NCBI GenBank assembly: GCA_046351255.1
Contig: JAXLYU010000014.1
Location: forward strand, 187,730 to 251,729
DNA: 64,000 bases
Direction: 5' to 3'
Source: Labilithrix sp.
Lineage (GTDB): Bacteria; Myxococcota_A; Polyangia; Polyangiales; Polyangiaceae
This document shows positions 17,840-53,489 of the stretch, in pieces. A program made the position numbers and the translations under genes. The notes under the pieces are model-generated. The model did no database searches and had not been told where the DNA came from. It saw nothing but the letters and a program-made list of their open reading frames with translations. Numbering within the stretch: position 1 is the stretch's first letter; each line of letters opens with the position of its first letter.

Positions 17840-17976
17840 CCGTGCCAGCTCGGCGAGGTACAGCTCGCGCGCGCGCGCGGGCTCTTCTCCCGGATCGAGC
17901 TCGAGCTCGACTTGAACGAGCGGATGCCCCGCGAGGAAGTTCGGCCCCGTGAGCCGGCGCGCGGTCTCCAGATACC

Positions 17977-20787
17977 TCAGTCGTCGCTCTCCCTCGCGAT
18001 GCGCACGCCGCGCTCGTCCTGGATGACGGTGGCGCCGTCGAGCATGACCTCACCGACCGCGACCGAGGAGCCGCGCGCCGCCGGCACCGCCGCGTGTGAG
18101 GGCGCGGGCGGAGGCGTGGAGCCCTCGTGACTGTCGGGCTTGAAGTAGATGACCTGCTTCCAGGAGCGAGAGACCTTGTCCGCGAAGAGGAGGAGGAGGT
18201 CGCCGCGGCGGGCCATGCGGAGCGCGGCGTCGATCGCGGCCGGCTCCTCCACCACCATCTGGATCTTCTCCTTCGGGAAGCCGCTCGCGACGAGCTCGTC
18301 GTGGAGCATCTTCGGCACCTCGTCGGGCTGGCGCCCGCGCGGATCGTCGTCGCGGCGCACGATGACGTGATCGAAGGGACCACGAGCCACCGCGCGCGCG
18401 ATGTTGCGGATGTCCTCGTCGCGGCGATCGCCAGGGCCGGCGACGACGCAGATGCGCCGGCCGCTGCACTCGAGGCGCTGCACGAGGTCGACCATGGCCT
18501 GCACCGCGGGCGCGTTGTGTCCGTAATCGAGGACCACCTTGAACGGGTGATCGTTGAACACGTTCGTGCGCCCCGGCACCTGGAAATACGAGTTGTCGAA
18601 GGTGCGGAGGCCCTGGCGGATGTTCTCGATGCGAACGCCCATCGCGTAGGCCATGGCCGCCGCGAAGAGTGCATTCTGCACGTTGTGCATCGCCTTGCCC
18701 TCGATGGTGGCCGGGATGAGGTGCGTCCAGAGCAGGGGCGTGAGCGCGCCCTTGTCGTAGAGCGTGATCATGTGCCCGTTGATGCCCTCCTCGAGGACGA
18801 CGGCGAGGCCGCCCGCGCGGATGTGCTTGCGCACGAGGTCGTGCCGCGGGTTCATGGTGACGTACGCGATGCGCTCCGCCTCCGTGTGGTCTGCCATGCG
18901 GAGGCACTGGATGTCGTCCGCGTTGAGCACGGCGCAGTCGGTGGCGACCTCCACCACGATGCGCTTCACCTCCGCGAGCTGCTCGATCGTCTCGACGCCG
19001 CGATCGCCGAGGTGATCGGCCTGGACGTTGAGGACCGCGCCGACATCGCACTTGCGATAGCCCATGCCCGCGCGGAGCAGGCCGCCGCGCGCGGTCTCGA
19101 GGACGGCGAGGCTGACGGACGGATCGCGAAGGACGATCTGTGCGGACGCGGGGCCGGTCATGTCACCGGTCACGGTGCGCTCGCCGTCGATGTAGACGCC
19201 GTCGGTCGTGGTGAGGCCGACGGTGTGGCCGTTCATCTTCTGGATGTGCGCGAGCATGCGCGCGGTCGTCGTCTTGCCGTTCGTGCCCGTGATGGCGGCG
19301 ATCGGGATGCGTGACGGCGTCCCTGGCGGGAACAGCATGTCCATGACGGGCGCGGCCACGTCACGCGGCTTTCCTTCGGTGGGCGCCACGTGCATGCGGA
19401 AGCCGGGGGCCGCGTTCACCTCGCAGATGCCACCGCCGACCTCGCGATAGCTCTGCGTGATGTCGGAGGTGATGAAGTCGACGCCGCACACGTCGAGGCC
19501 AATCGCCTTCGCGGCGCGGATCGCCATCTCGCGGTTGTCGGGGTGGACGGAGTCGGTGAGGTCGATCGCGGTGCCGCCCGTCGAGAGGTTACCGGTGCCG
19601 CGCAGGAAGAGGCGCTCGCCGTCGGGGAGCACGGTCTCCTTCGTGACGCCCGCCTTCGCCATGAGGCGCGCCGCCTGCTCGTCGAGCTCGAGGCGCGTGA
19701 GGACCTTCTCGTGCCCGATGCCGCGACGCGGATCCTGGTTCACGATGTCGACCAGCTCCGCGATCGTGTGCTTGCCGTCGCCGACGACGTGGCCCGGCAC
19801 GCGCTTCGCGACCGCGACGAGATCGCCGCCGATGACGAGCATGCGGTGATCGAAGCCGGCGAGGAAGTTCTCCACGACCACGCTGCGCGCGTGCTCTCGG
19901 GCCTTCTCGAACGCGACCTTCACCTCGTCCTCGGTCTTCAGATCGAGCGAGACGCCCCGGCCGTGGTTCGCGTCGAGCGGCTTCACCACGACGGGGAAGC
20001 CGAGGCGCTTCGCGGCGGCGACCGCGCCCTCGGGCGAGCGCACGAGGCGCTGGCGCGGCACGGGCAGGCCGAGGTCGCCGAGGATGTGGTTCGTCTCTTC
20101 CTTGTCGGAGGCGATCGACACTGCGATGTGGCGCGTCTCGGACGTGACCGTGGCCTGGATGCGCTTCTGGTACTTGCCGTGTCCGAACTGGACGAGGCTG
20201 TAGTCGTTGAGGCGGAGCCACGGGATGCCGCGGGCCTCTGCGGCGCGGACGAGCGAGCCCGTGGACGGGCCGAGCTGACGCCGCTGCGCGTAGTCGATGA
20301 GCTCGACGAGCTCGGTCTTGAAATCGAAGGGCTCTTCCTTCTCCGTCGCCTCCGCGTTCACGGCGGGCCGGAGATCGGCGGGGAGCAGGTGGTGCAGCAG
20401 CTTCAGCGCGAGATCGGCCGCCGCCTCTCCGACGCGCTCTTCCTCGTACTCGTAGACCACGTGGTAGCGGCCCTTGGTGCCCTCGCTCCGCGTCTTGCCG
20501 AAGGTGACCTGCGCGCCCGTGAGCTGCTGGAGCTCGATCGCGACGTGCTCGAGGACGTGCCCGAGCCAGGTGCCTTCCTCGAGGCGCTGGAGGAAGCCGC
20601 CCTCGACGCCGACGCTGCACGTGTGCGACTTCAGGCTCGGAAGCGCGGTGGTGAGCGCGGCGTTGAAGCCGGGGATCTTCGCGCTCGGCCAGTCCTCGAG
20701 CTTTCCAAGGTCGACCGTGAGGCGCATGACGGGGAAGTGCGCGTAGAGGCTGGGACCTCGGTAGACGCGGCGTTCGAGCAGCTCCAT
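17977..20787 (-). CDS. cphA: Cyanophycin synthetase CphA
   Basis: 936 aa with an N-domain (MELLERRVYRGPSLYAHFPV), an ATP-grasp G-domain and a Mur-ligase M-domain (ITGTNGKTTT, VLETARGG). An AGGAGA-like RBS lies upstream. Confidence 0.9.
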   Translation of the reverse strand: MELLERRVYRGPSLYAHFPVMRLTVDLGKLEDWPSAKIPGFNAALTTALPSLKSHTCSVGVEGGFLQRLEEGTWLGHVLEHVAIELQQLTGAQVTFGKTRSEGTKGRYHVVYEYEEERVGEAAADLALKLLHHLLPADLRPAVNAEATEKEEPFDFKTELVELIDYAQRRQLGPSTGSLVRAAEARGIPWLRLNDYSLVQFGHGKYQKRIQATVTSETRHIAVSIASDKEETNHILGDLGLPVPRQRLVRSPEGAVAAAKRLGFPVVVKPLDANHGRGVSLDLKTEDEVKVAFEKAREHARSVVVENFLAGFDHRMLVIGGDLVAVAKRVPGHVVGDGKHTIAELVDIVNQDPRRGIGHEKVLTRLELDEQAARLMAKAGVTKETVLPDGERLFLRGTGNLSTGGTAIDLTDSVHPDNREMAIRAAKAIGLDVCGVDFITSDITQSYREVGGGICEVNAAPGFRMHVAPTEGKPRDVAAPVMDMLFPPGTPSRIPIAAITGTNGKTTTARMLAHIQKMNGHTVGLTTTDGVYIDGERTVTGDMTGPASAQIVLRDPSVSLAVLETARGGLLRAGMGYRKCDVGAVLNVQADHLGDRGVETIEQLAEVKRIVVEVATDCAVLNADDIQCLRMADHTEAERIAYVTMNPRHDLVRKHIRAGGLAVVLEEGINGHMITLYDKGALTPLLWTHLIPATIEGKAMHNVQNALFAAAMAYAMGVRIENIRQGLRTFDNSYFQVPGRTNVFNDHPFKVVLDYGHNAPAVQAMVDLVQRLECSGRRICVVAGPGDRRDEDIRNIARAVARGPFDHVIVRRDDDPRGRQPDEVPKMLHDELVASGFPKEKIQMVVEEPAAIDAALRMARRGDLLLLFADKVSRSWKQVIYFKPDSHEGSTPPPAPSHAAVPAARGSSVAVGEVMLDGATVIQDERGVRIARESDD

Positions 20788-20794
20788 CTCTCTC

Positions 20795-21622
20795 CTAGCT
20801 TTCGGAAGGTGCGCTTGCGCGGCGCGTCTCGAGGTCGAAGGTGCCGCCTGCGGTGAGGACGTGCAGGCGAATGTTGGTGAGGCTCACGGGGCGCCCCTCT
20901 TTCGTCTCGGCGATCGACGAGTGCGTCAGCTCCGATGCGTCGACGATGGTGAGCGCGCCGGTGCCGACGACGGTGAGCTTGCGCGCGTGATCGATGAAGG
21001 CGGCGGTGTCCTCGTCGAGCCCGACGCCGACCGCGAACGGGTTGTACGCGAGCGCGGTGAGCAGGCGGCCGAGGCGATCGCGCTGGCGGAAGTGCTGGTC
21101 GATCATGATGCGGTTGGTGAGCCCGAACCCGGGCGCGAGCGACACCTTGCCCGCCTTCGGCGTGTGCCCCTCCTCGCCGTACGCGATCATGTGCTCGCTG
21201 AGGATGGCGGCACCGGCGCTCGTACCGCCGACGGTCGCGCCGCGCGCGTTCGCGCGCCGGATCGCCTTGGCCATGGGCGTCCCGCCGATGATGGTGGAGA
21301 GGCGGAGCTGGTTGCCGCCGGTGACGAAGATGCCGTCCGCCTCGCTGATGTACGTCAGCCACTCGTCGCGCGTGCAGTCGTCGCGCTTGAAGAGCGGGAG
21401 CGCCTTCGCCTCGTCGGCGCCGAGCTTGCGAAAGAGCTTCTCGTAGCGGCGCCCGGTGTCCTCGAGCTTGGAGGCGGTGGGGATCACGACGATGCGCGAG
21501 CCCTTGCCGCCGGAGACCTCGAGGAAGCGACGCAGAATATCGGACGGCCCGTCCTTGTCCTCGGCGCCGCCGATGGGGACGATGAATCCGCGCTTCTTGT
21601 CCGGCTCTACCTTTGCTGGCAT
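20795..21622 (-). CDS. cphB: Cyanophycinase CphB (peptidase S51)
   Basis: 275 aa. Carries the GGTSAGAAI serine motif and VIPTAS... blocks typical of cyanophycinase. It is immediately upstream of cphA on the same strand. Confidence 0.85.
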   Translation of the reverse strand: MPAKVEPDKKRGFIVPIGGAEDKDGPSDILRRFLEVSGGKGSRIVVIPTASKLEDTGRRYEKLFRKLGADEAKALPLFKRDDCTRDEWLTYISEADGIFVTGGNQLRLSTIIGGTPMAKAIRRANARGATVGGTSAGAAILSEHMIAYGEEGHTPKAGKVSLAPGFGLTNRIMIDQHFRQRDRLGRLLTALAYNPFAVGVGLDEDTAAFIDHARKLTVVGTGALTIVDASELTHSSIAETKEGRPVSLTNIRLHVLTAGGTFDLETRRASAPSES

Positions 21623-21847
21623 TCGATTGCTCTCGTCTCGTGATCTAGCGGTTACGGCTCGTTGCGAACACCGAAACGCGCTTCGCTAACACGTCTCCCG
21701 GGTCGCTGTCCTCGTCAAGGCCCAGTGACGGTTTCGAGCCAGAAACATGGGGCGAACGGCCCGGGGAGCGCCCGCGGAACGCCCACTTTCCCTGGCGACG
21801 CCGGGGCGGGGCTGTTCTATACCGGCGGTCAACCAGGGGGGCTCGAT

Positions 21848-22627
21848 ATGAAGCGCATCGGACTCGCGATCGTAGGCCTGCTCGCGGCCGGCTGTGCGGC
21901 GCTGAACGGCTCATCCGGCCCGGCCGTCGCGTCCCCGGTGGAGAAGACCTCTCCGTCGAGCGCGGCCGCGACGGGGGAGGAGGCCACGGCCACGGCCACG
22001 GCCACCGCCGCCGCAGAAGCGGCGGAGCCCGAGCCGATCCCCACCTCCTGTGGCGGCGAGCAGCCGATCAATGACGTGAAGGCCTGCCTCGTGCCGGAGG
22101 ACTTCGTGAAGAAGCTCTGCACCGGCTCGTACCCCGACGTCACGCTGTGGCTCTTCGCGAAGGGCACCCCGTGGACGCGAGTGTGGCTCTCCGGCGACGT
22201 CGAGGCGTGGAGCGCGAGCGGAGGCTTCACGAGCCGCACGAAGCTCGCGTTCGACGAGGAGGTGCTCGTGCTCACGCGCCACGCGGCGCCGAGCGGCGCG
22301 AACGGCATCGTGGTCACGAGCGCGGGCGCTAGCTTCGACGTCCTCCGCTGGGACGGCACGTGCGTCTCGGTGCAGGAGGGTGAGGTGACGGCCAAGCGCC
22401 CGCCGGCCCCCAAGCAAGCGCTCATGCGGTGGGCGAAGCTCGAGGAGGCCACGCGCGGCGCGCTCCTCGCGTCGGCGGCGGTGAAGACGAGCCAGGGCGC
22501 GCTCGAGAAGGCGTGCAGCGGTGACAAGACCTCGTGCGAGCGCGCGGAGAAGGACCTCTCGCTCGCCATCGCGAACGCGGTCCGCGCGGGCGGCACGGAG
22601 CTCCCGGCTCCCACGCGCCGTCCCTGA
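21848..22627 (+). CDS. Lipoprotein, hypothetical
   Basis: ATG at 21848 (MKRIGLAIVGLLAAGCAAL) has a lipobox. It is divergent from cphB. The 62-aa upstream part of the track ORF is extension. Confidence 0.55.
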   Translation: MKRIGLAIVGLLAAGCAALNGSSGPAVASPVEKTSPSSAAATGEEATATATATAAAEAAEPEPIPTSCGGEQPINDVKACLVPEDFVKKLCTGSYPDVTLWLFAKGTPWTRVWLSGDVEAWSASGGFTSRTKLAFDEEVLVLTRHAAPSGANGIVVTSAGASFDVLRWDGTCVSVQEGEVTAKRPPAPKQALMRWAKLEEATRGALLASAAVKTSQGALEKACSGDKTSCERAEKDLSLAIANAVRAGGTELPAPTRRP

Positions 22628-22708
22628 AAATCGAGGGCGCGGCCGCTCCTGGCGGGCGCTTCAGGGTGTCGTCTTCGGAGGGCCGATGCGCTAGAGGGGC
22701 GTTCACGC

Positions 22709-23917
22709 ATGGCCGACCCTCTTCTTCTTTTGCGGAATGCCGATGTCCATGCGCCGGAGCCGCTCGGACGGCGCGACGTGCTCGTCGGCGGCGGGCGCGT
22801 GCTCGCCATCGAGGAGCGCATCGGGGAGCTGCCGAGCGTCGGCGTCGCGGGCATGGCCACGCTCGATGTGGCGGGACAGCGGCTCGTGCCGGGGTTCGTC
22901 GACGCGCACGTCCACCTCACCGGCGGCGGCGGCGAGTCCGGACCGGCCTCGCGCGTGCCACGGCTCCCCTTTCGCGTGCTCGCGGAGGCGGGCGTCACCA
23001 CCGCCATCGGCGTGCTCGGCACCGACGGGACCACGCGGACCGTCGCCGCGCTCGTGTCCGCCGTCCAGGCGCTGCGCGAGGAAGGGCTCTCGGCCTGGTG
23101 CTGGACCGGGAGCTACGAGGTGCCGCCGATCACGCTCACCGGCGATGTGCGACGGGACATCGTCTATGTCGATCCCATCATCGGGGTAGGGGAGCTCGCC
23201 ATCAGCGACCACCGCTCTTCGCAGCCCACGTTCGACGAGATCGCGCGGCTCGCCGCGGACTGCCACGTCGCCGGCATGATGAGCGGCAAGGCCGGGCTCC
23301 TGCATCTGCACCTCGGCGATGGGCCGCGCGGGCTCTCGCTCGTGCGCCGTGCGCTCGACGAGACCGAGCTCCCCGCCGCCACGTTCTATCCCACGCACGT
23401 GAACCGCAAGACCGCGCTCTTCGCGGAGGCGCTCGAGCTCGCGCGGCGGGGGATGCCCATCGACGTGACCGCGTTTCCCGTCGAGGACGGCGAGGACGCG
23501 TACGACGCCGCCGACGCCATCACGCGCTACCTCGCGAGCGACGCGCCCCGCCACCTGCTCACGTGCAGCTCCGATGGCGGCGGCTGCTTGCCCAGGTTCG
23601 ATGCGAGCGGTCGGCTCTCGGCGATGGATATCGGCCGCCCGGCGGCGCTCTTCGACACGTTCGCCACGCTCCTCGCCCGCGGCGCCGCGCTCGGCGACGT
23701 CCTGCCCGTGTTCACGCGCAACGCGGCCGAGGTCTTGAGGCTCGGACGCAAAGGCCGGATCGCGGTGGGCGCCGACGCCGATCTGGTCGTGCTCGATGAC
23801 GGCGGCCGTCCGAGAGAGGTGCTCGCGCTCGGCCGACCGATCCTGCGTGACGGCGCCGTCGTCGTCACCGGGACCTTCGAGACGGCGTTCTCGCGGATCT
23901 CGAAGAGTCGGGGGTGA
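22709..23917 (+). CDS. iadA: Isoaspartyl dipeptidase (beta-aspartyl dipeptidase) IadA
   Basis: GFVDAHVHLTGGGGESG and the amidohydrolase fold over about 400 aa match IadA. It would hydrolyse the beta-Asp-Arg dipeptides released by cyanophycinase. Confidence 0.8.
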   Translation: MADPLLLLRNADVHAPEPLGRRDVLVGGGRVLAIEERIGELPSVGVAGMATLDVAGQRLVPGFVDAHVHLTGGGGESGPASRVPRLPFRVLAEAGVTTAIGVLGTDGTTRTVAALVSAVQALREEGLSAWCWTGSYEVPPITLTGDVRRDIVYVDPIIGVGELAISDHRSSQPTFDEIARLAADCHVAGMMSGKAGLLHLHLGDGPRGLSLVRRALDETELPAATFYPTHVNRKTALFAEALELARRGMPIDVTAFPVEDGEDAYDAADAITRYLASDAPRHLLTCSSDGGGCLPRFDASGRLSAMDIGRPAALFDTFATLLARGAALGDVLPVFTRNAAEVLRLGRKGRIAVGADADLVVLDDGGRPREVLALGRPILRDGAVVVTGTFETAFSRISKSRG

Positions 23918-25738: not shown

Positions 25739-26167
25739 CTACTTGCACGCGCTCGCGAGATCGAAGAGGTTCTTCGCGAGCGCGGTATTCGCGGCTTCCG
25801 ACGTATCCTTGCATGCCTGGTACGCCGTCTCGTAGGCGTAGATCGCCTTGCGGCAGTCGCAGCTCGCGCACGCCTTGGCCTTGGCGTCCGCCTTGAGCGT
25901 CGGGCTGTCGGCGTTCGTGACGTCGAGATCGCCGTCGAGGATCGCGCACGTCGACTGCACCTTGTTGAACGCGCTCTCGGCGTCTTCCGATGCTGGACAA
26001 CCGGCTGGTGCCGCGCCGAGCGCGGGCGCGCACGCCGTCGACCCGGAGGAGCTCGACGCGCCGCCGGAGGAGCTCGAGGAGCTCGACGACGTCGAATCGG
26101 TCGAGTCGCTGGAGCAGGCCATGAGGAGCGAGATCCCGAGGACGAGCGCGCTTCGAAGCATGAGCAC
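25739..26167 (-). CDS. Small Cys-containing lipoprotein, hypothetical
   Basis: GTG at 26167 or ATG at 26161 (MLRSALVLGISLLMACSS) gives a lipobox, then a poly-Ser linker and an 80-aa domain with 8 Cys. The overlapping 25710..26177 frame is Arg-rich and rejected. Confidence 0.45.
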   Translation of the reverse strand: MLMLRSALVLGISLLMACSSDSTDSTSSSSSSSSGGASSSSGSTACAPALGAAPAGCPASEDAESAFNKVQSTCAILDGDLDVTNADSPTLKADAKAKACASCDCRKAIYAYETAYQACKDTSEAANTALAKNLFDLASACK

Positions 26168-26231
26168 AGTCTGCCACGGTTCTGTGCTCCGTTCGGAGAA
26201 TCCGAGAGGCAGGCGACGAGGGCCGAGTCGA

Positions 26232-27443
26232 TCAGCGCGAGACCCCCGCGAGGAGGGCGACCGCCGCCAGCGTCGTCTGCGCGGCGTTCAGGCCGAGGCG
26301 GAAGTCCCGATCGGAGAAGGCTTCGAAGACGTCCGTCGGTTGATGCCAGTGCGGGTCCCACCCTGCGCCGATCTGCGTGCCGCGCTCGTTCTCCCGCAAG
26401 CTGATGGACGGCGTGACGTCCATGAAGGGCGTCGAGTCGGTATTCGTCATGTGATTACCGACTTGCGCCGGATAATCGGTCGCGAATTTCTCGTTCGCGC
26501 GATGGAAATGCCACGCGAGCTTCGCGGACTCGGCCGCTAGCCGGGAGTCGGCCTGGAATTCGATATTCACGTCCGCCTCGCGCCGCTGGTCGGGATCGAG
26601 AGTGCCGTCGGGGCGGGGCATTCCGTGATCGAAGAGCATCATGTCGTGCTGGATCATCCCGAGCCAGCGCGGCTCCGGATATCGCCTCGAGCCTGGCGGA
26701 TCCTCCTTGCCCTGGAGCGGGGCGCGCTGCTCGACGTAGGCGCGACTCCCATCGAGGCCGGTCTCCTCGTTGTTCCACAGAATGAACCGGATCGAGCGCT
26801 CCGTCTTCACGTCCGGCGCGCTGAAGATGCGCGCGAGCTCCATCACGATCGCCGTGCCGGAGCCGTCGTCGTTCGCCGCCTCGCCGAAGCCGTGACCGTC
26901 CATGTGCGCGCCGACGATGTACATCTCGTCCGGGTGTGTCGCGCCGATCTTGGTGCAGTAGACCTCCTGACGCGGGCCGGGCGCGGAGGGCTCGAGGTCG
27001 AGCGCCCGGACGGCGGGGTCGGGCTGGCGCTCCGGATCGGTGTTCACCCCGGTGGGCGCGACGACCCCGCGGAGCGTGCCTCCGCCGGCCGCCGTCGACC
27101 GCGCGGGCGTCCTGGCGCGCGGCGCGTCCCGGAAGACGTAGTCGAGGCGGCGGACCTCCGCGCATCCATGGTCTCGGAGCTGGGCCTCGATCCAGTCGAT
27201 CGCGCGGCGGTTGCGCTCCGTTCCCTGGCGCCGATCTCCGAATCGGGTGAGCCCTTTGATCGTCGCCTTGTAGGCCTCCAGATCGAGGCGCGCGACGAGC
27301 TGCCGGACGCGCGCGTCGTCGACGGCTGGTGGCGGGCTCGCGCTCGGCGTCGCGCTCGCCGGTGCCACCGCCGCCGGCACGTGCGGTCTCTGACAGGCCG
27401 CGACCACGAGGAGGAAGATCGAAGACACGTACGGCGCTCGCAC
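26232..27443 (-). CDS. M28-family aminopeptidase, lipoprotein
   Basis: HMDGHGFGEAANDDGSGTAIVMELARIF and NNEETGLDGSRAYV are M28 zinc-ligand blocks. The start is uncertain. GTG at 27443 gives MRAPYVSSIFLLVVAAC (lipobox) and avoids overlapping the divergent gene. ATG at 27494 is the alternative. Confidence 0.7.
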   Translation of the reverse strand: MRAPYVSSIFLLVVAACQRPHVPAAVAPASATPSASPPPAVDDARVRQLVARLDLEAYKATIKGLTRFGDRRQGTERNRRAIDWIEAQLRDHGCAEVRRLDYVFRDAPRARTPARSTAAGGGTLRGVVAPTGVNTDPERQPDPAVRALDLEPSAPGPRQEVYCTKIGATHPDEMYIVGAHMDGHGFGEAANDDGSGTAIVMELARIFSAPDVKTERSIRFILWNNEETGLDGSRAYVEQRAPLQGKEDPPGSRRYPEPRWLGMIQHDMMLFDHGMPRPDGTLDPDQRREADVNIEFQADSRLAAESAKLAWHFHRANEKFATDYPAQVGNHMTNTDSTPFMDVTPSISLRENERGTQIGAGWDPHWHQPTDVFEAFSDRDFRLGLNAAQTTLAAVALLAGVSR

Positions 27444-27492
27444 GGCGCCGGGATACCTCGGTCCGCTCCTTCCGGCTAGGCTCTGGTCGAAC

Positions 27493-28020
27493 ATGCGTCG
27501 TCTTGCGCTCCGGGGAGCACTCGTCCTGATGGTCGCCTGCTCCGACGACTCCACCTCCAGCTCGAGCTCCGGCAATCCGACGTCCGGCTCGTCCGGCTCG
27601 TCCGGCTCGGACACCTGCTCCGGCGGTCAGAACATGACGAGCCCGGTCATCTCCGGGCCGGTCGCGCCCGACGGCGACGGGACCCGGGTTCGCATCACCT
27701 GGGAGCGCGGCACGGGGCGCGGGGCCGACCTCCCGGCGAAGTACTTCGACGCGCCCGTCGCGAGCCCCGCCGCCCAGGTGGATCGCGTCGAGCACGTCAG
27801 CGAGCGCGAGCTCGACGTCGTGCTGAAGGGCGCGCCCGCCGCGCAGGCCGGGAAGACGCTCGCGATCGCGCTCGACTTCGGCGACCGCCGGACGGTCCTC
27901 GACTGCAAGCATCCGGGGATGCAGGACCACTACGTCCTCGAGCTCACGCTCACGTTCGGAAGCGATGGCTCGCTCGCCGCCAGCAAGCTCGAAGAGAAGT
28001 TCAGCCCGGGCGACATCTGA
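27493..28020 (+). CDS. Lipoprotein, hypothetical
   Basis: MRRLALRGALVLMVACSDD has a lipobox, followed by a Ser/Gly linker and a 120-aa domain. It is divergent from the M28 peptidase gene. Confidence 0.55.
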   Translation: MRRLALRGALVLMVACSDDSTSSSSSGNPTSGSSGSSGSDTCSGGQNMTSPVISGPVAPDGDGTRVRITWERGTGRGADLPAKYFDAPVASPAAQVDRVEHVSERELDVVLKGAPAAQAGKTLAIALDFGDRRTVLDCKHPGMQDHYVLELTLTFGSDGSLAASKLEEKFSPGDI

Positions 28021-28260
28021 GCCACCTCGCAAGGGGCTCTGGGGCATGTGTGCTCTCGTACTCCGCTGTCGGTATCGGCCTGATCATGGGGTGGTGAGGT
28101 CACGCCGCGCGACGATCGAGCGCGCGCCCTTCCCGACGTGAAGTCGCCCACTTGCACGGGCGCGGAGCTGCCATTTGGCGACACGCCTGGAATCTGGAAC
28201 GAGCAGGCACCCCGAAGGAGGCTCGCCGGCGGTGGTCCGGCGGTTGCTGCATCGTGATGC

Positions 28261-29277
28261 ATGCATTCATCACGAATCGCACTCGCCCTCTTCGTCGCGA
28301 CCTCTCTCTCTCTCGTCGCGTGCTCCGAGGCGTCGCCCTCGTCGCTGTCACGCGCGGGGGATGACGAGTCGGTCAGCGACAAGACCACGACGAAGCGCGC
28401 GCCCATGAAGAAGGCGACGGACGGTGACGAGGCGGTCGGGCCGAGCGCGGTCGGCGGCACGCACCGGCGCGTATACCGCGCGTCGCACGAGGCTCCGAAG
28501 AAGAAGTATCCCACCGGTCTCCTCACGTCGCCGCCGGGCAAGGCCAAGGCCGCGAAGCGCTCCAGCCTGCGCGTGCAGGCAGACGCGAACGAGCTCCCGC
28601 CGTCGGTCGACCTGACCGGCAACGCGCCGGCCGCCGCCAACCAGGGGAACACCTCGGCCTGCGGGACCTTCGCCACGGGCTATGCCCTCATGGGGTGGTG
28701 GGCGAAGACGGTGGGCATGCCGGGCGCGCCGTACGCGCCGATGTTCCTCTATTCGCTTCAAGCGGAGGGCGACTGCGCCAACCACGGGACGTTCATCGAG
28801 GACAACATGGATATCCTGCGCAACTTCGGTATCCCGTCCGACACGGCTTATCAGCCCATGCAGTCTCGGCTCGACTGCGTGACCCAGCCCACCCAGGCCG
28901 CGGCCAACGACGCCGCCGCGCACCGCGTCGCGTCGTATGACGTCCTCGACCTCTCGGGCAGCAAGGCGCTCGCGATCGCGCAATACCTCGCGGCCGGTGT
29001 CCCGGTCGTGATCGGCATGCAGACGTACAACGCGATCTTCAACGCGAGCCAGGAGAACTGGCTCGTCGATCAGCCGATGCCGGGTGAGCAGTCCACGGGC
29101 GGGCACGCGGTCACCGTCTTCGCCTATGACCAGAACGGCCTCTGGTTCCTCAACTCCTGGGGCGAGGAGTGGGGCTGGCAGGGCTGGGCCCAGCTCTCGT
29201 GGGACTTCGTCGACGGAGCCCAGGGCGGCATCGACAACATCAACTCCGCCGCCGCCGCCACCGACGTCCAGCGCTGA
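28261..29277 (+). CDS. Papain-like cysteine peptidase (C1 family), lipoprotein
   Basis: Lipobox MHSSRIALALFVATSLSLVAC. QGNTSACGTFATG (Gln/Cys), GGHAVTVFAYD (His) and NSWGEEWG (Asn-Ser-Trp) reproduce the C1 catalytic blocks. Confidence 0.75.
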   Translation: MHSSRIALALFVATSLSLVACSEASPSSLSRAGDDESVSDKTTTKRAPMKKATDGDEAVGPSAVGGTHRRVYRASHEAPKKKYPTGLLTSPPGKAKAAKRSSLRVQADANELPPSVDLTGNAPAAANQGNTSACGTFATGYALMGWWAKTVGMPGAPYAPMFLYSLQAEGDCANHGTFIEDNMDILRNFGIPSDTAYQPMQSRLDCVTQPTQAAANDAAAHRVASYDVLDLSGSKALAIAQYLAAGVPVVIGMQTYNAIFNASQENWLVDQPMPGEQSTGGHAVTVFAYDQNGLWFLNSWGEEWGWQGWAQLSWDFVDGAQGGIDNINSAAAATDVQR

Positions 29278-29340
29278 GCCGGCTCCGCGCTGGTGTCGGA
29301 CAGCGCCGTCTGGCGCGATACCGGATGGTATCGTCTCCTC

Positions 29341-30738
29341 ATGCGATTCACGAAGGTCGTGGTCCTGCCGGTGCTGATGATGGGCGGGGTTGCCTCTGCC
29401 TGTGGCGGCGACGACAAGGCGGGCTCGAGCGCGTCGGGCGGCTCGAGCACGGGCGGCGCGTCGAACGGGTCGACGTCGTCCGGCGGGAGCAGCGGGTCGA
29501 CGTCGTCGGGGGGGACCTCGAGCTCGGGAGGGCCGGATGACGCGGGGGCGGCGGACGACGGCGGGCTCGCCGTGTCCTTCAAGGCCTACGACATCAATTA
29601 CATCCTCTCCACCGGCCAGAGCCTCTCCGTCGGAGCGCAGGGGTCGCCCGTCCTCTCGACGGCGCAGCCGGACGGTAACCTGATGTGGAACACCGGTGTC
29701 ATCGCCGGTAACGCCAACCTCACGAGCTTCGTGCCCCTCGTCGAGAAGGGCAACGAGACGATGTCTTCCGCGCTCGTCAATCACATTAGCGACGACGCGA
29801 GGACGAGCTTCGGCCTATCGCACGTGCTGCTCCTGAGCGCCCACGGCGTCGGCGGGCAGCCCTACGCCAAGCTGAAGAAGGGCGAGCCGCCGTACGCGAA
29901 CGGCATGGCGCAGGCGAAAGCGGCGGTCGAGCTCGCGAAGGCACAGGGCAAGACGATCGTCGTGCGCATGGTGACCAACGTCCACGGCGAGACGGACCAC
30001 GTTCAGCAGAACAAGAACTACCGCGCGAATATCGCCGAATGGCAGGCCAACTACGAAGCCGACGTCAAGGCCATGACCGGGCAGACGGAGCCGATTCCCA
30101 TGTTGCATACGCAGATGCATAGCTGGACTCGGTATCAGCCCGGCGGGGCGCCGGCGCCATTCTCGTCGACGTCGCGGATTCCGATCGACCAGCTCGCCGA
30201 GCACGTTGCCAGCAACGGGAAGACGGTCCTGGTCGGTCCGAAGTATCAGGTCGAGTACGTCGCCGACGGCGTTCACCTCACGAACCGAGGCTACCGGCAC
30301 ATGGGCGAGTACTACGCGAAGGCGTATCGCCAGATCGTGCTCCGCGGGAAGAAGTGGGAGCCCCTGCGTCCTATCTCGGTGACGCGGAATGGCGCGACCA
30401 TCACCGTGAAGTTCCTCGTCCCCGTGCCGCCACTGAAGCTCGATACGGAGCTCGTGACGAATCCCGCCGACTTTGGCTTCGAGCTCGCCGGTGATGGTCC
30501 GGTACCGAACATCGAGAGCGTCGACGTCGCGGGGCCGGACACGGTGACGATCAGGCTCGACAAGGCGCCCACCGGGAACAACCTGCGCCTCCGTTATGCG
30601 TTTACCGGCACGCCCGGCGCGGACGGTGGACCAAAGACGGGAGCGCGCGGCAACCTGCGCGACTCCGACGAGACCAGGTCGCTCTACGACTTCAAGCTCT
30701 ACAACTGGTGCGTCACCTTCGACGAGGCGCTTCCTTGA
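29341..30738 (+). CDS. SGNH-hydrolase esterase, sialate O-acetylesterase-like (DUF303-type), lipoprotein
   Basis: ATG at 29341 (MRFTKVVVLPVLMMGGVASAC, lipobox). Block I STGQSLSVG (GQSN-like), NVHGETD (compare HQGESD) and DGVHLT (DxxH) are present. Confidence 0.6.
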   Translation: MRFTKVVVLPVLMMGGVASACGGDDKAGSSASGGSSTGGASNGSTSSGGSSGSTSSGGTSSSGGPDDAGAADDGGLAVSFKAYDINYILSTGQSLSVGAQGSPVLSTAQPDGNLMWNTGVIAGNANLTSFVPLVEKGNETMSSALVNHISDDARTSFGLSHVLLLSAHGVGGQPYAKLKKGEPPYANGMAQAKAAVELAKAQGKTIVVRMVTNVHGETDHVQQNKNYRANIAEWQANYEADVKAMTGQTEPIPMLHTQMHSWTRYQPGGAPAPFSSTSRIPIDQLAEHVASNGKTVLVGPKYQVEYVADGVHLTNRGYRHMGEYYAKAYRQIVLRGKKWEPLRPISVTRNGATITVKFLVPVPPLKLDTELVTNPADFGFELAGDGPVPNIESVDVAGPDTVTIRLDKAPTGNNLRLRYAFTGTPGADGGPKTGARGNLRDSDETRSLYDFKLYNWCVTFDEALP

Positions 30739-30791: not shown

Positions 30792-33209
30792 TCAGGTGTC
30801 ACGAGCATGCTCGGCGGCGCCGTTGCTCTTGAGGACCGCGGCGACCTTCGTGCCCGCGAGGAGGCGCGCGAGGACGTCGCGGACGCTCTCGCCGCCGAGG
30901 ATCGCGAGCGGCGCCATGCTCTCCGCCATGCGCTCCGCGAGCGCGCGATCTCCGAAGGCCTGGAGGGCCGCGATGAGGTCAGGCGATACCGCCTTGGCCT
31001 TCTCGGAGACGGCCTGCACCTGCGCCGCGATCTCCTGCAGGTCGAGGGAGAGCTCCGCCTGCTTGCCCTCGATCTCCACCGCCTTGGAGGCGCGCTGGCG
31101 CTCGCGCTCCGCCTGGGCGACGGCGTCGATGCCCTGCTGCTCCGCCTGCTTTGCCGAGAGGCGCGCCTTCTCGACCGCGTGCTCGCCCTCGATGGCCGCG
31201 ATGGCGAGCTCGCTGCGCTGCTTCGCGGTCCGTGCCTGCACCTCCGCGATCTCGCGCTCGATCGCCTCGCGCTCGCGCACGAGCTCGAGGCGGCGCTTCT
31301 CGCCGTCGAGGGTCAAGGTCTGGCCGACCACGGCGTGCTGCGCCTCGACCAGGAGGGCGTCGATCTTCGCGTCGCCGATCGCGACATCGAGGACCTCGAC
31401 GTCGTAGACGCGCATGCCGTTCTCCTCGAACGCTCGGCCGGGGCGCTTGCCGCCTTCACCGGGAACGCCGAGCACCACGTCCCGCACGAGCGGCGCGACG
31501 CGCGGATGCAGCTCCTGCACGCGGTGGGACTTCACGGCGGCGCGCACGAGCGAGCGCAGGTGCTCGGTGAGGAACTTGACGTAGTTCTCGACGGAGAACC
31601 ACCGGCTCGGGTCGCCCTCGAAATTCACGCGGTACGACAGGCGAATGCGGATCGAGACGAGGTCCGCCGTCTCCGCCTCGATGAGGTCGGAGACCTTGTT
31701 GTAAAGTACACGCAGGTAGACGGTGCGTTCGACCTTGGCGTCGCTCTTCGGCGTGCCGGTGGAGAGCTCCATCGCCTGGAGGACCTCGTCGTACTCGAGG
31801 AGGTGGGTGGCGGGCGAGACGATGACCTTGCGCATGCCCGTCTTGCTCACGACCTCGACCGCGTAGCCCGTGTGGGGCGCGATGGAGACCGCGCCGTCGT
31901 AGCGGGTGTCGAGGACGATCGTGCGTGGTTGCGTGAAGCTCTGCTTGCGGTCGAAGTCGTCGCCGACGAAGGCCGGGGGCTTGGCGGCGGCCGGCTCCGC
32001 GGGCGGCGGCACCGGAATATTCTGTTTCGTCTCGGGGACGAGATCGCGATGTCCGTTCTCGCGCAGCGCGGCGAGGCTCTCGTTGTGCTTCAGCGCGACG
32101 GGATTGCCCGGAAACCACAGCTCGACCTGCCGGCGATCGAGGATGCGGCGCACGATGACCTCGCGGCGCGGGTCCGGGAGGAAGATCTGCGGCCCGCGCT
32201 CGAGGCGGACGTGTCCGGCCTGACGGTCGAGCACGTAGCGCGCCTCGCCCGCGGGGATCGCCACCGCGTGGTGAATCGTCTGCTCGCCATATCGAACGAT
32301 CGCGTGCTCGGGCCGCGGGAAATAGATCATCTGCTCGCGGCCGGTGATGAAGACCTCATCGCCGACCTTTCGCGGAGCGCCGTCTTCCTCGATGTAGGGC
32401 GCGATGACCTTGACGTAGATGCCGCTGTTCTCGTTCAGCTCGATGGCGCGGAACTTGTGGACCCCGCCGCGCTCCACGAAGGTCTCCGTGGGGCTCGGAA
32501 AGACGACCGCCGGCCCGCGGAGGAATTTCTTGTCGCCGTTCTCGTCGAGCAAGATGGCATATTCCAGGCGCTCGAGCGTCACCGCGTCACGGACGTAATT
32601 GCCTTTCTCGTCCGGGACCACCTCGATGCCCGTCGGCGGGATGTAGAAGGAGACGACGGTGCCGCGAATGACGAGGAGATTCCCCATCGTCAGGTCCGGG
32701 AGCGGCGGCGGCTGGGGGTCGCCGTCGGCGCTCGCGGTCTTGATGACGGCGTTCCCCCAGTTCGCGCGCGCCGCGTCCTCGTCGTAGACGCGCACGACGA
32801 GGTACTGATTCGAGCGCAGGTGGTGGCCCTGGATGACACGGACGAGCTGGCCGGGCCACAGCGCGAAGGAGACGGGGCCCGCGATGGTGCGCTTCCGCCC
32901 GACCTCGAGCTCGACGAGGTTGTTGATGGCGCCGGTCTTCGGGTGCGTGCCGTCGCGCGCGGGGTTCTTGAGGAGCACGTACCAGCCGACCGGCGCCACG
33001 GCAAAGGCGTTGATCGCCTCCTCCAGCGTCACGCGGTCGAAGCGCTTCGTGTTCTCCGTGAAGACGACGGGCTGGTCCGTGTTGGCCAGGCTCGTCTTGT
33101 GTGGTCCGACGTAGACATTGATGTTTCCCTTCGTCTCGTCGGAAATGAAGGCAAATTCGTTCGGAGCCAGGACCAAGTCCCGCTCGCGCGCCCGCTCCCT
33201 CTCGCTCAT
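30792..33209 (-). CDS. Major vault protein (MVP) homologue
   Basis: ATG at 33209 ([50 protein letters not shown]) aligns with the eukaryotic MVP N-terminus ([38 protein letters not shown]). Successive ~55-aa vault repeats follow. The shoulder region [21 protein letters not shown]...[31 protein letters not shown] matches MVP [20 protein letters not shown]...[31 protein letters not shown]. A long C-terminal cap-helix coiled coil is present. The 94-aa N-terminal extension of track ORF 30792..33491 is rejected. Confidence 0.8.
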   Translation of the reverse strand: [805 protein letters not shown]

Positions 33210-33357
33210 GGATGCGACGTAGAGTCGGAGTTGCCTCCGGTCCAGTAGTGGCCGGAGCAGCGGTTGGCGCTCCGACTTCGCGTCGCTGGGACGCAAGCAC
33301 CCGGCGCCCGCGATGGTGCGGATGTTGCGTCGGGCGGCGCACCCATGGAGGGGACTC
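33210..33357. promoter_or_regulatory. Divergent intergenic region (MVP gene versus BON-domain gene) with nested inverted repeats
   Basis: The sequence agtcggag-ttgcctccgg-(14 nt)-ccggagcagcggttggcg-ctccgact contains an outer 8-bp and an inner 6-bp inverted repeat. This is a candidate operator or hairpin. Confidence 0.3.
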
Positions 33358-33759
33358 ATGAACACTCGATTTGCCATCCTTTCGCTCGCGCTCGCGCTCG
33401 CGCTCGTGGGCGCTGGCGCCTGCAACAAGGACAAAGACACTCCGCACGCCAGCGACACGACCACCACGAACGCCGACAACACGCAGGTCAACGAGCGTGA
33501 TCGTCAGCCCACCGTCACGCCCGTCGATCAGGGCAACAGCAAAGACGAGCTCGCGATCTCGTCCGCGATCCGTCAGTCGATCATGTCGAAGGACGGTCTC
33601 TCGTTCGATGCCAAGAACGCGAAGGTCGTGACCATCGGCACGAAGGTGACCTTGCGCGGCCCGGTGAAGTCGGAAGAAGAGCGCATGACGCTCGAGAACA
33701 TTGCCAAGACCACGAAGGGTGTGACCTTCGTCGACGATCAGCTCGAAGTGAAAAAGTAA
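33358..33759 (+). CDS. BON-domain lipoprotein (OsmY-like)
   Basis: ATG at 33358 (MNTRFAILSLALALALVGAGAC, lipobox). The BON-like C-terminus reads AKNAKVVTIGTKVTLRGPVKSEEERMTLENIAKTTKGVTFVDDQLEVK. Confidence 0.7.
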   Translation: MNTRFAILSLALALALVGAGACNKDKDTPHASDTTTTNADNTQVNERDRQPTVTPVDQGNSKDELAISSAIRQSIMSKDGLSFDAKNAKVVTIGTKVTLRGPVKSEEERMTLENIAKTTKGVTFVDDQLEVKK

Positions 33760-33771
33760 GAGGAACAGACC

Positions 33772-34299
33772 ATGAAAAAAGCAGTCATGTGCATCGTGTC
33801 GACGCGTCCGCAGGCCGAGACGATCGTCGCCCAGCTCCAGCAAAGCGGCTTCTCGGACAACGACATCTCCGTTCTCTTCCCCGATCAGAAGGGGACGAAG
33901 GACTTCGCGCACGAGCACAACACCAAGGCGCCCGAAGGCGCGGTCGCAGGCGCGAGCGCCGGCGGCGTCCTTGGCGGCACGGTCGGGTTGCTCGCCGGTA
34001 TCGGCGCGCTCGCGATCCCCGGGCTTGGCCCCTTCATTGCGGCCGGTCCGCTCCTCGCGGCCCTCAGCGGCGCCGCAGCGGGCGCCACCCTCGGCGGCGT
34101 GACCGGGGCGATGGTCGGCATGGGCATTCCCGAGATCGAAGCGAAGCGCTACGAAGGCAAGCTTCGTCAGGGCAATCTCCTCATCGCCGTTCACACGGAG
34201 AACGCCGAGGAGCAGAAGCGCGCGGAGCAGATCTACAAGGCCGCCTCCGCGAACGACGTCTTCTCGCAGACGGAAGCCGCCGTCCCGTCGAGCGCCTGA
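33772..34299 (+). CDS. General stress protein 17M-like (YflT-type) protein with Gly-zipper
   Basis: An AGGAA RBS lies 8 nt upstream. The N-terminus CIVSTRPQAETIVAQLQQSGFSDNDISV matches the GSP17M N-domain. The central GxxxG glycine-zipper segment is typical. Confidence 0.6.
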   Translation: MKKAVMCIVSTRPQAETIVAQLQQSGFSDNDISVLFPDQKGTKDFAHEHNTKAPEGAVAGASAGGVLGGTVGLLAGIGALAIPGLGPFIAAGPLLAALSGAAAGATLGGVTGAMVGMGIPEIEAKRYEGKLRQGNLLIAVHTENAEEQKRAEQIYKAASANDVFSQTEAAVPSSA

Positions 34300-36531: not shown

Positions 36532-37937
36532 TCAGCGGGGCTTTCGCCTCTTCGGTCCGCGATGGAGCCAGCGATAGAGCGTCGAGACGTCGACCTCGAG
36601 GATGGTGGCGGCGGCGACCTTGTCGCCGCCCGTGTGCTGGAGGACGCGCGCGACGTGGCGCATCGTCATTTCGCGGATCGAGGTGTTCAGGGCGTCGGGC
36701 GGGAGAGGGTGGACCGCGGGGTCGCCCGTGACGGACGGCTGGGCGTCGCGGCCTCCGCTCGCCTGCATCGCGGCCACGTCTGCCTCCTCGACGCGCGTCG
36801 TCTTGCCGAGCACCACGAGGCGCTCGATGGTCGCCTGGAGCTCGCGGATGTTGCCGTGCCACGGTAGGCGCAGGAAGAGCTCGTGGGCCTCGGGCGCGAT
36901 CGACTCGACCTGCGAGCGCGGATTGCGTGCGCGCGCGTCGTCGAAGAAGTATTGAATCAGCGAGGGGAGGTCGTCTCTCCTTTGGCGGAGCGCCGGGACC
37001 TCGATCGCGAGGACGTTGAGGCGGAAATAGAGTCCTCGCGGAACTTGCCGGCGCGCACCGCGACGGAGAGATCGCGGTGCGTCGCGGCGACGAACCGGAC
37101 GTCGACCGGGCGCTCGTGATCGCCGCCGACGGGACGGATGCCTTTTCCTTCGAGGACGCGGAGCATGCGGCCCTGGAGCTCGATTGGCAGATCCGCGATC
37201 TCGTCGAGGAAGAGCGTGCCGCCCTCGGCCTCCGCGATGAGGCCGCGGCGGGCGCGGGTCGCGCCCGTGAAGGCGCCGGCGACGTGGCCGAAGAGCTCGC
37301 TGTCGAGGAGCGTGGAAGGGATCGCGCCGGCGTTGACGACGACGTAAGGACGATGACGGCGCGGGCCGCGCGCGTGGATGCGCGCCGCGAGGAGGTCCTT
37401 GCCCGTGCCGGTCTCACCGATGAGCAGCACCGGCGCCGTCGAGTGCGCGACGCGGTCGGCGGACTCGAGGGCGAGCGCGAGGGCGGGGGACGAGCCCACG
37501 ATGGTCCCGGGCGAGAACGGGCGCGGCGGGACCACGCTGCGGCCGCCTTCGAGACGGATGCCCTCGGTTTCGGACACCGCTCGCTCGACGCTCGACTGGA
37601 GCAGCCCGCCGTCGATCGGCCAGAGGAGGTAATCAGAGGCGCCCCGGCGACCGGCTTCGAGGAGGTTCGTCGCGCTGGCATCGCTGCCGACGAGGATGAC
37701 CTTGGTCGCGGGGCTCTGCTCGCGCGTCGAGCTCAGGAGGTCGAAGCCCGCTGGATCTGCGAGCTCGTGGCGGGCCACGACCACGTCGACGGGCTGCTGC
37801 GCAAGAGCGGCCATGGCCGCATCGCCGGTCGAGGCCACCTCGCATGCAAAATGCGGCGCGAGCGCGGTCTGCAGGTGAGCAGCCGCGTGGTCGTCCTCGT
37901 CGACGATCAAGACACGGAACCGGCGTCGCGTGACCAT
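36532..37937 (-). pseudogene. Sigma-54-dependent response regulator (NtrC/Fis family) interrupted by a 1-nt frameshift
   Basis: Receiver domain (VLIVDED...), AAA+ sigma-54 domain (VLLIGETGTGKDLLARAIH, ESELFGH, GGTLFLDEI) and C-terminal Fis HTH (MRHVARVLQHTGGDKVAAATILEVDVSTLYRWL) are all present. The frame breaks in FRED|LYFRLNV (observed GAGGACTCTATTTCC, expected GAGGACCTCTATTTCC) near 37032. Confidence 0.65.
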
Positions 37938-53345: not shown

Positions 53346-53489
53346 GAAGCGGCGATCATAAACCGAGCGTTCTCCGATCCCCAGTGCGTGATACGTTCCC
53401 ACCGCTTGCATTCGGGGACCCGCACGGCCCCTCTCTCGGAGGGCGCGGAGGAAGACAGCTTCGACGACGCCGCTCCGCCGGAGCCGGGG

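Follow-up and report, generated by a model that had tools for sequence, protein, structure and literature searches.

The minus strand of a 64-kb stretch of a Labilithrix (Myxococcota, Polyangia) metagenome-assembled genome (MAG), hereafter the window, encodes a full-length homologue of the eukaryotic major vault protein (MVP), with the MVP domain order, a native composition, a wide distribution of relatives and no conserved partner gene. The gene runs from an ATG at 33209 to a stop codon at 30794–30792, and its product of 805 amino acids (aa) matches P0001 ('MAG: hypothetical protein U0270_30120 [Labilithrix sp.]') at 100% identity from end to end. An earlier reading of this DNA (the original prediction) had announced a full-length MVP homologue in a bacterial chromosome within exactly these open reading frame (ORF) limits, and both claims held; the strand, which it had not given, is minus. 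We took the ATG at 33209 as the start codon because M1 is invariant across 52 homologues in the family alignment. A longer stop-to-stop frame reaching up to 33503 was rejected, as it runs into a divergent gene for a BON-domain lipoprotein. No second MVP copy was found within the 64-kb window.

Similarity to eukaryotic MVP in sequence and fold

A search with the Vault repeat and MVP shoulder models, as suggested in the original prediction, placed the shoulder well above its cutoff and returned the repeats weakly in the single sequence. Pfam MVP_shoulder (PF11978) matched aa 503–613 over profile positions 2–118 of 118 (E 1.3e-25; 90.1 bits against a curated cutoff of 25). Vault_3 at aa 456–493 (E 7e-5) stayed below threshold for the 805-aa protein, as did Vault (PF01505) at aa 258–299 with 18.2 bits against a cutoff of 27. 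Both MVP_shoulder and Vault_3 were matched by 52/52 close homologues (62–92% identity), with a best Vault_3 E value of 7e-10. BLASTP against human MVP (a sequence 100% identical to PDB 11dr_A) gave 25% identity over 606 columns, pairing residues 210–753 with human 274–814 (E 2e-13). FSVENYVKF pairs with human FSVPDFVGD in this alignment, and both motif pairs quoted in the original prediction are real and aligned there.

Using the single sequence, phmmer found no MVP chain among the PDB sequences even at E ≤ 10. The human MVP query retrieved many MVP chains from the same set, and the miss therefore reflects the divergence of the Labilithrix protein rather than an absence of MVP from the set. 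A profile of the 52 close homologues, searched against 177,635 PDB sequences, matched MVP chains only (best E 2.6e-22); all six sequences at E ≤ 1 were MVP. With a more diverse family set of 98 sequences, hhalign aligned the family profile to human MVP colinearly from residue 1 (query 1–784, human 1–846; probability 99.9%, E 7.4e-32, 23% identity).

The predicted fold pointed the same way. An AlphaFold2 model built on the 98-sequence alignment reached a mean predicted local distance difference test (pLDDT) score of 83.9, with values above 90 at aa 10–385 and 440–620; it replaced a first model from the 52 close homologues, which was discarded (pLDDT 53.5, N-terminal half below 50). When the model was compared with the PDB using Foldseek, the top 16 matches were all MVP (E 3.6e-33 to 5.8e-14), including whole rabbit, human and rat chains (E 3.6e-33 to 3e-26) and a mouse R1–R7 fragment (E 4.7e-15). 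SPFH cage proteins followed at 1e-6 or weaker, leaving MVP a lead of 26 orders of magnitude, and among the structures matched MVP alone covers both halves of the protein. The fold-level kinship of the shoulder to SPFH proteins is nevertheless real in the Foldseek comparison, and was already known for MVP. Matches confined to SPFH/band-7 proteins or to the coiled coil, which the original prediction had named as the result that would speak against it, did not occur: the N-terminal repeats match MVP R1–R7 by both profile and predicted fold. No TolA-like match appeared among the Pfam or PDB results, although no search was aimed at TolA; the TolA similarity reported by Sokolskyi 2019 (bioRxiv 10.1101/872010) concerns the low-complexity Ala/Glu/Lys-rich helix.

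Repeats, shoulder and cap along the chain

Seven beta-repeats were assigned by combining the model's strand groups with the alignment to human MVP and weak internal self-similarity (Table 1). As expected for the MVP family, the vault beta-repeat array starts with the first residues of the protein and a long cap helix is followed by a cap-ring segment. The first repeat, whose counterpart R1 forms the waist contact in eukaryotic vaults, contains a 13-residue motif that is invariant among the 52 close homologues. The third carries a P-rich insertion at aa 159–177; in this region human residues ~108–158 and 213–236 have no counterpart in the hhalign alignment, and a 12-residue stretch pairs with human IRQNQALRLRAR. 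Conservation across the family peaks in the fourth repeat. Within the sixth, a helical insertion at aa 359–385 (model helices H359–365 and H370–385) is followed by a disordered Pro/Ala-rich loop at aa 386–440, which is poorly conserved and has pLDDT values below 50 at 394–422. In the seventh, LSTGTPK (aa 482–488; window 31746–31766, minus strand) lines up with LSAGRPK, the 'keyhole loop' of human MVP; across 98 diverse members of the family just 26 columns are invariant, S483 and K488 among them.

Beyond the shoulder, the cap helix aligns with the human cap helix with ~33 residues fewer. Its hydrophobic periodicity is 3.5 residues (heptad-like), a value that 2.9% of shuffles reach as well. In the C-terminal segment, ...LAILGGESV pairs with human AIGPSTIRDLAVA...TLITDGSTP in the hhalign alignment; its conserved part (aa 739–795) is nearly invariant in close homologues, with a model pLDDT of 45–60. 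Along the family, conservation was highest in the repeats and shoulder, strong at the C-terminus and lowest in the loop and the helix sequence.

Origin and distribution of the gene

The gene is native in base and codon composition, as originally proposed: its G+C content at third codon positions (GC3) is 0.92, and its window-referenced codon adaptation index (CAI) of 0.72 lies within the 0.60–0.80 spanned by 17 other window genes. Identity to its relatives is 88–100% within Labilithrix, 66–69% in Nannocystaceae, 62–65% in Polyangiaceae and 55–61% in other phyla. Because identity drops with taxonomic distance, the sequences would fit vertical inheritance inside Polyangia, while 55–61% identity across phyla seems to imply an older horizontal spread of the family.

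That spread, the fame of MVP as a eukaryotic protein and the presence of relatives in 284 IMG/VR contigs and in the huge phages LR756500, LR756501 and LR756503 might suggest a foreign gene: a eukaryotic contaminant in the MAG, a gene acquired recently from a eukaryote, or one carried in by a phage or prophage. We consider this very improbable. The ORF is uninterrupted and native in GC3 and codon usage; it is flanked by genes that are ordinary for myxobacteria, namely those for a sigma-54 activator, for lipoproteins and for cyanophycin metabolism, and by no phage genes; and the protein is 23–25% identical to human MVP as opposed to 62–91% to other Polyangia, in taxonomic order. Moreover, orthologues occur in complete genomes of cultured Nannocystis, and phage copies are just 42–52% identical. 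A defence-island or prophage reading was likewise rejected, with no PADLOC or PHROGs match for the protein or its neighbours and no MVP-like copy on any of 72,556 plasmids. The original description as a resident gene therefore stands on native composition, neighbours and an identity order that follows taxonomy.

The original statement that bacterial MVP genes are at most sporadic did not stand. HMMER searches against 1.84 billion 50%-identity representatives yielded 1,327 clusters at E ≤ 1e-3, of which 633 reached E ≤ 1e-30; the 150 best-scoring ones are 41–54% identical and nearly all ~800–950 aa long. A word-indexed search returned >6,600 clusters at 90% identity, many labelled 'major vault protein' by the Joint Genome Institute (JGI). 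At least 525 species-representative genomes (one per species) carry a relative, the best 80 being 55–71% identical. These relatives belong to Myxococcota (Labilithrix, Enhygromyxa, Nannocystis, including complete genomes of cultured strains, and Polyangiaceae), Desulfobacterota (Desulfonema), Sericytochromatia, Cytophagales/Microscillaceae, Riflebacteria, Chloroflexota, Planctomycetota and others. Over 99% of its length, the Labilithrix protein shares 69% identity with P0011, a protein of Enhygromyxa salina that we take to be A0A0C2D5V5.

Myxobacterial members of the family were described as early as 2013 and again in 2019. Daly et al. 2013 (Genome Biol Evol, PMC3762200) described proteins of Plesiocystis, Corallococcus, Microscilla, Saprospira, Flexibacter and Herpetosiphon with ~25% identity to eukaryotic MVP, for which folding and docking like those of MVP were predicted, and Sokolskyi 2019 (bioRxiv 10.1101/872010) analysed an Enhygromyxa salina protein in silico. 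Entries in these two studies include Plesiocystis pacifica A6FXM1 and A6FXE2, Corallococcus coralloides H8MNI3 and Enhygromyxa salina A0A0C2D5V5. The published bacterial list comprises about ten sequences, and a 2026 paper still speaks of 'only a few Bacteria'. The Labilithrix protein is thus a new species-level member of a known family, and the claim of rarity is unsupported.

Relatives in large phages

Full-length relatives with 41–52% identity are encoded on 284 IMG/VR contigs, many of them 100–500 kb long. Using tblastn, we also found full-length relatives (42–45% identity) in huge-phage records that carry no annotation, LR756501/LR756503 (735 kb) and LR756500 (462 kb); the two loci retained are L164 (LR756501.1 9320–27599) and L165 (LR756500.1 13054–31363). 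The only paper on phage MVP that we found, a 2023 preprint, reports two gut-phage copies (bioRxiv 10.1101/2023.11.10.566534).

We compared 80 of the IMG/VR loci (L084–L163) with 83 bacterial loci (L001–L083). Of the viral loci, 31/80 had transfer RNA genes no more than 5 kb from the homologue, versus 2/83 of the bacterial ones, a comparison with bacterial loci and not with random phage genes. Sixteen of the 31 have three or more tRNA genes, up to 11. Counted by lineage, 15 of 44 viral clusters at 70% identity bear tRNAs, seven of them in arrays. Large-phage tRNA regions attract accessory genes of many unrelated kinds, and some of the IMG/VR contigs may have been wrongly assigned; we regard the tRNA and RNA-repair context of the phage copies as a lead, not a result.

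One phage clade of 15 loci in three sub-lineages (L160:446–11477, L139, L145, L148, L151, L153, L156, L159 and L161–L163, with the order partly kept in L141, L142, L152 and L157) shows the order tRNA array, DUF2828+DUF7788 protein (vWA-type DTSGSM), MVP homologue, cREC-REC, weakly RlaP-like nucleotidyltransferase and calcineurin-like phosphoesterase. Judged by its gene content, this block looks like an RNA-repair module beside an MVP. RlaP and cREC are reportedly found in RNA-repair systems. DUF2828 is presumably TROVE/Ro-like; if so, its place beside the MVP homologue would recall the eukaryotic combination of MVP, TEP1 and small RNA. Against the PDB, sequence and profile searches with the phage DUF2828 protein gave a marginal vWA-type match around DTSGSM and nothing more. 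In another clade, a PTH2 peptidyl-tRNA hydrolase gene directly follows the MVP homologue. About 1.2 kb downstream of the homologue, the same clade has a CUA-anticodon tRNA, an amber suppressor that ARAGORN labels tRNA-Pyl (Table 1), which suggests that these phages may recode TAG.

A predicted soluble protein that may close into a cage

Hydropathy and inspection of the N-terminus revealed no signal peptide, transmembrane segment or lipidation motif in the Labilithrix protein. We predict it to be soluble and cytoplasmic because no segment exceeds a Kyte–Doolittle 19-residue mean of 1.25, the N-terminus is highly charged and there is not a single cysteine. On balance, we think it somewhat probable that many copies of this soluble MVP-family protein close into a hollow vault-like cage without the help of other genes, as the original prediction had suggested. 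A smaller, self-assembled cage of the vault type is plausible by analogy: eukaryotic MVP builds vault shells by itself (10.64898/2026.05.01.722283), and SPFH proteins are reported to form closed rings or domes via the helix after the SPFH domain (10.1101/2025.04.21.649849). Homo-oligomerisation appears most likely because all segments are kept in order, the cap helix is periodic, and the N-terminal motif and the C-terminus are nearly invariant. The heptad-like cap helix, the conserved repeats, shoulder and C-terminus, and the variable, lumen-type loop are all compatible with assembly. Copies would pack side by side, as in MVP and all structurally studied SPFH proteins, so that the cap helices could close into a helical dome, with a wall made of shoulders and repeats; two half-shells may then pair through repeat 1 to enclose a hollow cage. 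Relative to the 78-mer eukaryotic vault, such a cage would be reduced in length and probably in width, because each chain has two fewer repeats and a cap helix that is ~20% shorter. We would expect each half to have fewer than 39 subunits, and the particle to fall short of the rat vault (roughly 670 Å) by about 100 Å.

The kinship of the shoulder also raises the idea of a single SPFH-type dome or ring on the cytoplasmic membrane, comparable to HflK/C, flotillin, stomatin or prohibitin, that would organise microdomains or a membrane protease. This is unlikely, since canonical SPFH proteins have an N-terminal anchor and the Labilithrix protein has neither a transmembrane or other hydrophobic anchor nor a signal peptide or lipidation motif. 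Pfam Band_7 matched it with an E value of 0.33 and 11.4 bits, below the cutoff of 23.6, so that both marks of SPFH/Band-7 membership (a Band_7 match above threshold and an N-terminal membrane anchor) are absent. In addition, aa 10–500 form a vault-type repeat array foreign to SPFH proteins, for which MVP is the only match, and none of the adjacent genes encodes NfeD, FtsH or another SPFH partner.

A protein that does not close into a cage and instead acts as an elongated scaffold or adaptor, for example in the repair or protection of RNA or tRNA, would fit the tRNA genes near the phage copies and the flanking DUF2828/DUF7788, cREC, weakly RlaP-like nucleotidyltransferase, phosphoesterase and PTH2 genes. 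We rate this reading as rather unlikely. No such partners lie beside the bacterial genes or in the window, the tRNA-rich regions of large phages collect unrelated genes, and the viral loci are partly related to each other, as the cluster counts show. A scaffold role would also be compatible with a cage, and if the protein did not oligomerise, the conservation of its cap helix and C-terminus would be difficult to account for.

For the function of the putative cage, our best guess, a weak one, is that it might sequester or scaffold nucleotides or small RNAs, because the invariant K488 aligns with the human lysine that contacts NAD+/ADP and because of the phage tRNA and RNA-repair context. Human K506 contacts the diphosphate of NAD+/ADP (PMC12280208). 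Nucleotide binding as deduced from the pocket itself was dropped, since too few of the ~12 human NAD+-site residues are retained.

Several observations weigh against the cage and its suggested function. Identity to eukaryotic MVP is no more than 23–25%, and model confidence is moderate in the cap helix and low in the C-terminal part. Two missing repeats and the shorter cap helix mean that the geometry cannot be assumed. The human waist-interface residues F6, R9, D39 and N40 are not conserved, and of the human NAD+ pocket the protein keeps K488 (human K506), plus N504 in place of D521. The literature searched yielded no experimental paper on any bacterial MVP homologue and no publication on native bacterial particles. 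As for the functional guess, RNA-related neighbours accompany the homologue only in some phage clades and are found neither beside the bacterial genes nor in the Labilithrix window.

Taken furthest, the phage context would make MVP a mainly prokaryotic and phage family whose cages work with small RNAs, with a triad of MVP, TROVE protein and small RNA that predates eukaryotes. The triad might then have arisen in RNA repair or protection during phage–host conflict, the cages holding or protecting tRNA-like RNAs together with a TROVE-type partner. This is a long shot; if true, the myxobacterial MVP gene would be a tractable entry point to vault function.

Genes around the MVP homologue

The neighbourhood is rich in lipoproteins, as originally described, with about a dozen lipobox-like N-termini across the window. 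A run of genes for predicted secreted or lipobox-bearing proteins adjoins the MVP-like gene and spans 25739–30738. The original prediction was also right that TEP1 and PARP genes are not linked: among the ORFs of the 64-kb window there are no TROVE/TEP1, PARP or NACHT-WD40 proteins, a statement on linkage only, and an Rfam scan of the window found no RNA family. The associates of a complete vault ribonucleoprotein (TEP1, PARP4 and vault RNA) are thus not linked to the gene within these 64 kb.

The intergenic region shared with the divergent BON-lipoprotein gene presumably holds the promoters of both genes. Sigma-70 and sigma-54 scans found no usable promoter for the MVP-like gene; the sigma-54-like motif in this region faces the BON gene, and such motifs are not more frequent in the window than expected by chance. 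A stress-linked operon with the BON-lipoprotein/YflT pair was considered and rejected, as orthologue loci, including that of a Labilithrix at 89% identity, have other neighbours. All-against-all clustering of flanking ORFs from 84 loci found no family in more than 15 loci, and those at variable positions. Because the neighbours of orthologues differ and nothing is conserved in the 84 loci, the MVP-like gene is a stand-alone unit. At single loci, a MoxR-type AAA_5 ATPase and a DUF2201 (vWA-associated) protein directly precede the orthologue in a 12.8-Mb myxobacterial genome (L002:4360–6923), and an ADP-ribosylglycohydrolase lies 2.4 kb downstream in a Labilithrix relative (L003:11878–12828); neither the AAA_5/DUF2201 pairing nor the ADP-ribosylglycohydrolase is conserved across loci. 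Further away, the window holds a cyanophycin metabolism cluster (16307–23914) and a kinase/AAA_16 gene next to a beta-propeller lipoprotein gene.

Table 1. Features of the MVP-like gene and its surroundings. Positions refer to the window unless a locus number is given; R1–R9 are the repeats of eukaryotic MVP.
Feature	Position	Strand	Remarks
Complete coding sequence, MVP-family protein	30792..33209	-	805 aa + stop codon 30792-30794
Beta-repeat 1, aa 10-65, = MVP R1	33015..33182	-	hhalign pairing with human; pLDDT above 90
Beta-repeat 2, aa 66-125, = MVP R2	32835..33014	-	hhalign to human 47-107; strand group E66-115
Beta-repeat 3, aa 126-208, in place of human R3-R5	32586..32834	-	strand group E122-197
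Beta-repeat 4, aa 209-253, = MVP R6	32451..32585	-	BLASTP and hhalign to human 273-323
Beta-repeat 5, aa 254-313, = MVP R7	32271..32450	-	hhalign to human 324-379; Pfam Vault sub-threshold
Beta-repeat 6, aa 314-440, = MVP R8	31890..32270	-	hhalign to human 380-457
Beta-repeat 7, aa 441-500, = MVP R9	31710..31889	-	Pfam Vault_3 at aa 456-493
Shoulder domain, aa 501-613, SPFH-like alpha/beta	31371..31709	-	Pfam MVP_shoulder
Cap-helix domain, aa 614-738, one continuous predicted 125-residue helix	30996..31370	-	DSSP H614-738, both models
C-terminal segment, aa 739-805, MVP cap-ring region	30795..30995	-	hhalign: aa 739-784 / human 797-846
Intergenic region, 148 bp, MVP-like / BON-lipoprotein genes	33210..33357	.	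no sigma-70 consensus found
Sigma-54-like TGGTGCGGATGTTGC	33314-33328	+	faces BON gene, 30 nt upstream of its start
BON-domain lipoprotein (MNTRFAILSLALALALVGAGAC...), ATG 33358; then YflT-type heat/stress protein	33358-34299	+	divergent from MVP gene
Sigma-54 activator gene	36960-37937	-	3.7 kb from MVP gene
SASA-like esterase, predicted secreted/lipobox	29293-30735	+	downstream, convergent with MVP gene
Papain-like C1 peptidase, predicted secreted/lipobox	28261-29274	+	downstream, convergent with MVP gene
M28 peptidase, predicted secreted/lipobox	26235-27614	-	downstream of MVP gene
Ser-rich lipoprotein	25739-26167	-	near MVP gene
Amidohydrolase, possibly isoaspartyl dipeptidase	22709-23914	+	
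S51 cyanophycinase-type peptidase	20798-21622	-	
Cyanophycin synthetase	17980-20787	-	
Second Mur-ligase-type protein	16307-17839	-	
848-aa beta-propeller lipoprotein	47115-49658	-	adjoins kinase/AAA_16 gene
1,280-aa protein, Ser/Thr kinase domain then AAA_16 (STAND-type) ATPase	49767-53606	-	
CUA-anticodon tRNA	L114, L115, L116: 8744-8816; L132:8486-8561; L108:9068-9141; L120:5991-6064; L143:8551-8624		

Significance and comparison with vaults and related cages

Since 1986 it has been an open question what vaults do and where they come from. Bacterial homologues could provide a simple genetic system, with one gene, no obligatory partners and orthologues in culturable Enhygromyxa (E. salina DSM 15201, NZ_JMCC02000029.1) and Nannocystis (N. 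exedens DSM 71). Such a system might reveal the role of an MVP cage and the way in which its dimensions depend on the number of repeats and the length of the cap helix. This opportunity was already in the literature, and the Labilithrix gene itself adds little to it. What our analysis adds is a family larger and taxonomically broader than the 'few bacteria' quoted in 2026, with a consistent seven-repeat architecture, a stand-alone gene in bacteria and frequent occurrence in large phages near tRNA and RNA-repair-type genes.

Compared with eukaryotic MVP (rat, human, mouse and rabbit; PDB 4V60, 4HL8, 9BW5, 11DR and 3GF5), the order of beta-repeats, shoulder, cap helix and cap-ring is alike, the disordered loop likewise sits in the R8-type repeat, and the S-x-G-x-P-K motif of the 'keyhole loop' is kept. 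Eukaryotic MVP has nine repeats, whereas the Labilithrix protein has seven, one of which stands for R3–R5; its cap helix has ~125 residues versus ~156, and the long C-terminal tail of eukaryotic MVP is absent. Eukaryotic MVP assembles into hollow two-halved barrels, 39-fold dihedral in rat and human; for the Labilithrix protein, a particle is a prediction. The SPFH/Band-7 cage proteins (HflK/C, QmcA, flotillin, prohibitin, stomatin and erlin) differ in two ways: they have a membrane anchor, which the Labilithrix protein does not, and they do not have its 500-residue N-terminal vault-repeat array.

Among prokaryotic and viral relatives, the representative of the Asgard archaeal MVP homologues has five repeats as opposed to seven in the Labilithrix-type bacterial family, and only ten Asgard homologues have been reported, so that the bacterial family is far larger (Nat Microbiol 2026, PMC12962969). 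The phage homologues (bioRxiv 10.1101/2023.11.10.566534) are full-length, similar in length and group with bacterial MVPs. Phage copies often lie in tRNA arrays and bacterial copies do not; the Labilithrix gene is chromosomal, with no phage genes nearby. The putative bacterial homologues of Daly et al. 2013 and Sokolskyi 2019 belong to the same family as the Labilithrix protein and share its length (~800–850 aa), its Pfam signature of a shoulder and weak repeats, and its ~25% identity to eukaryotic MVP.

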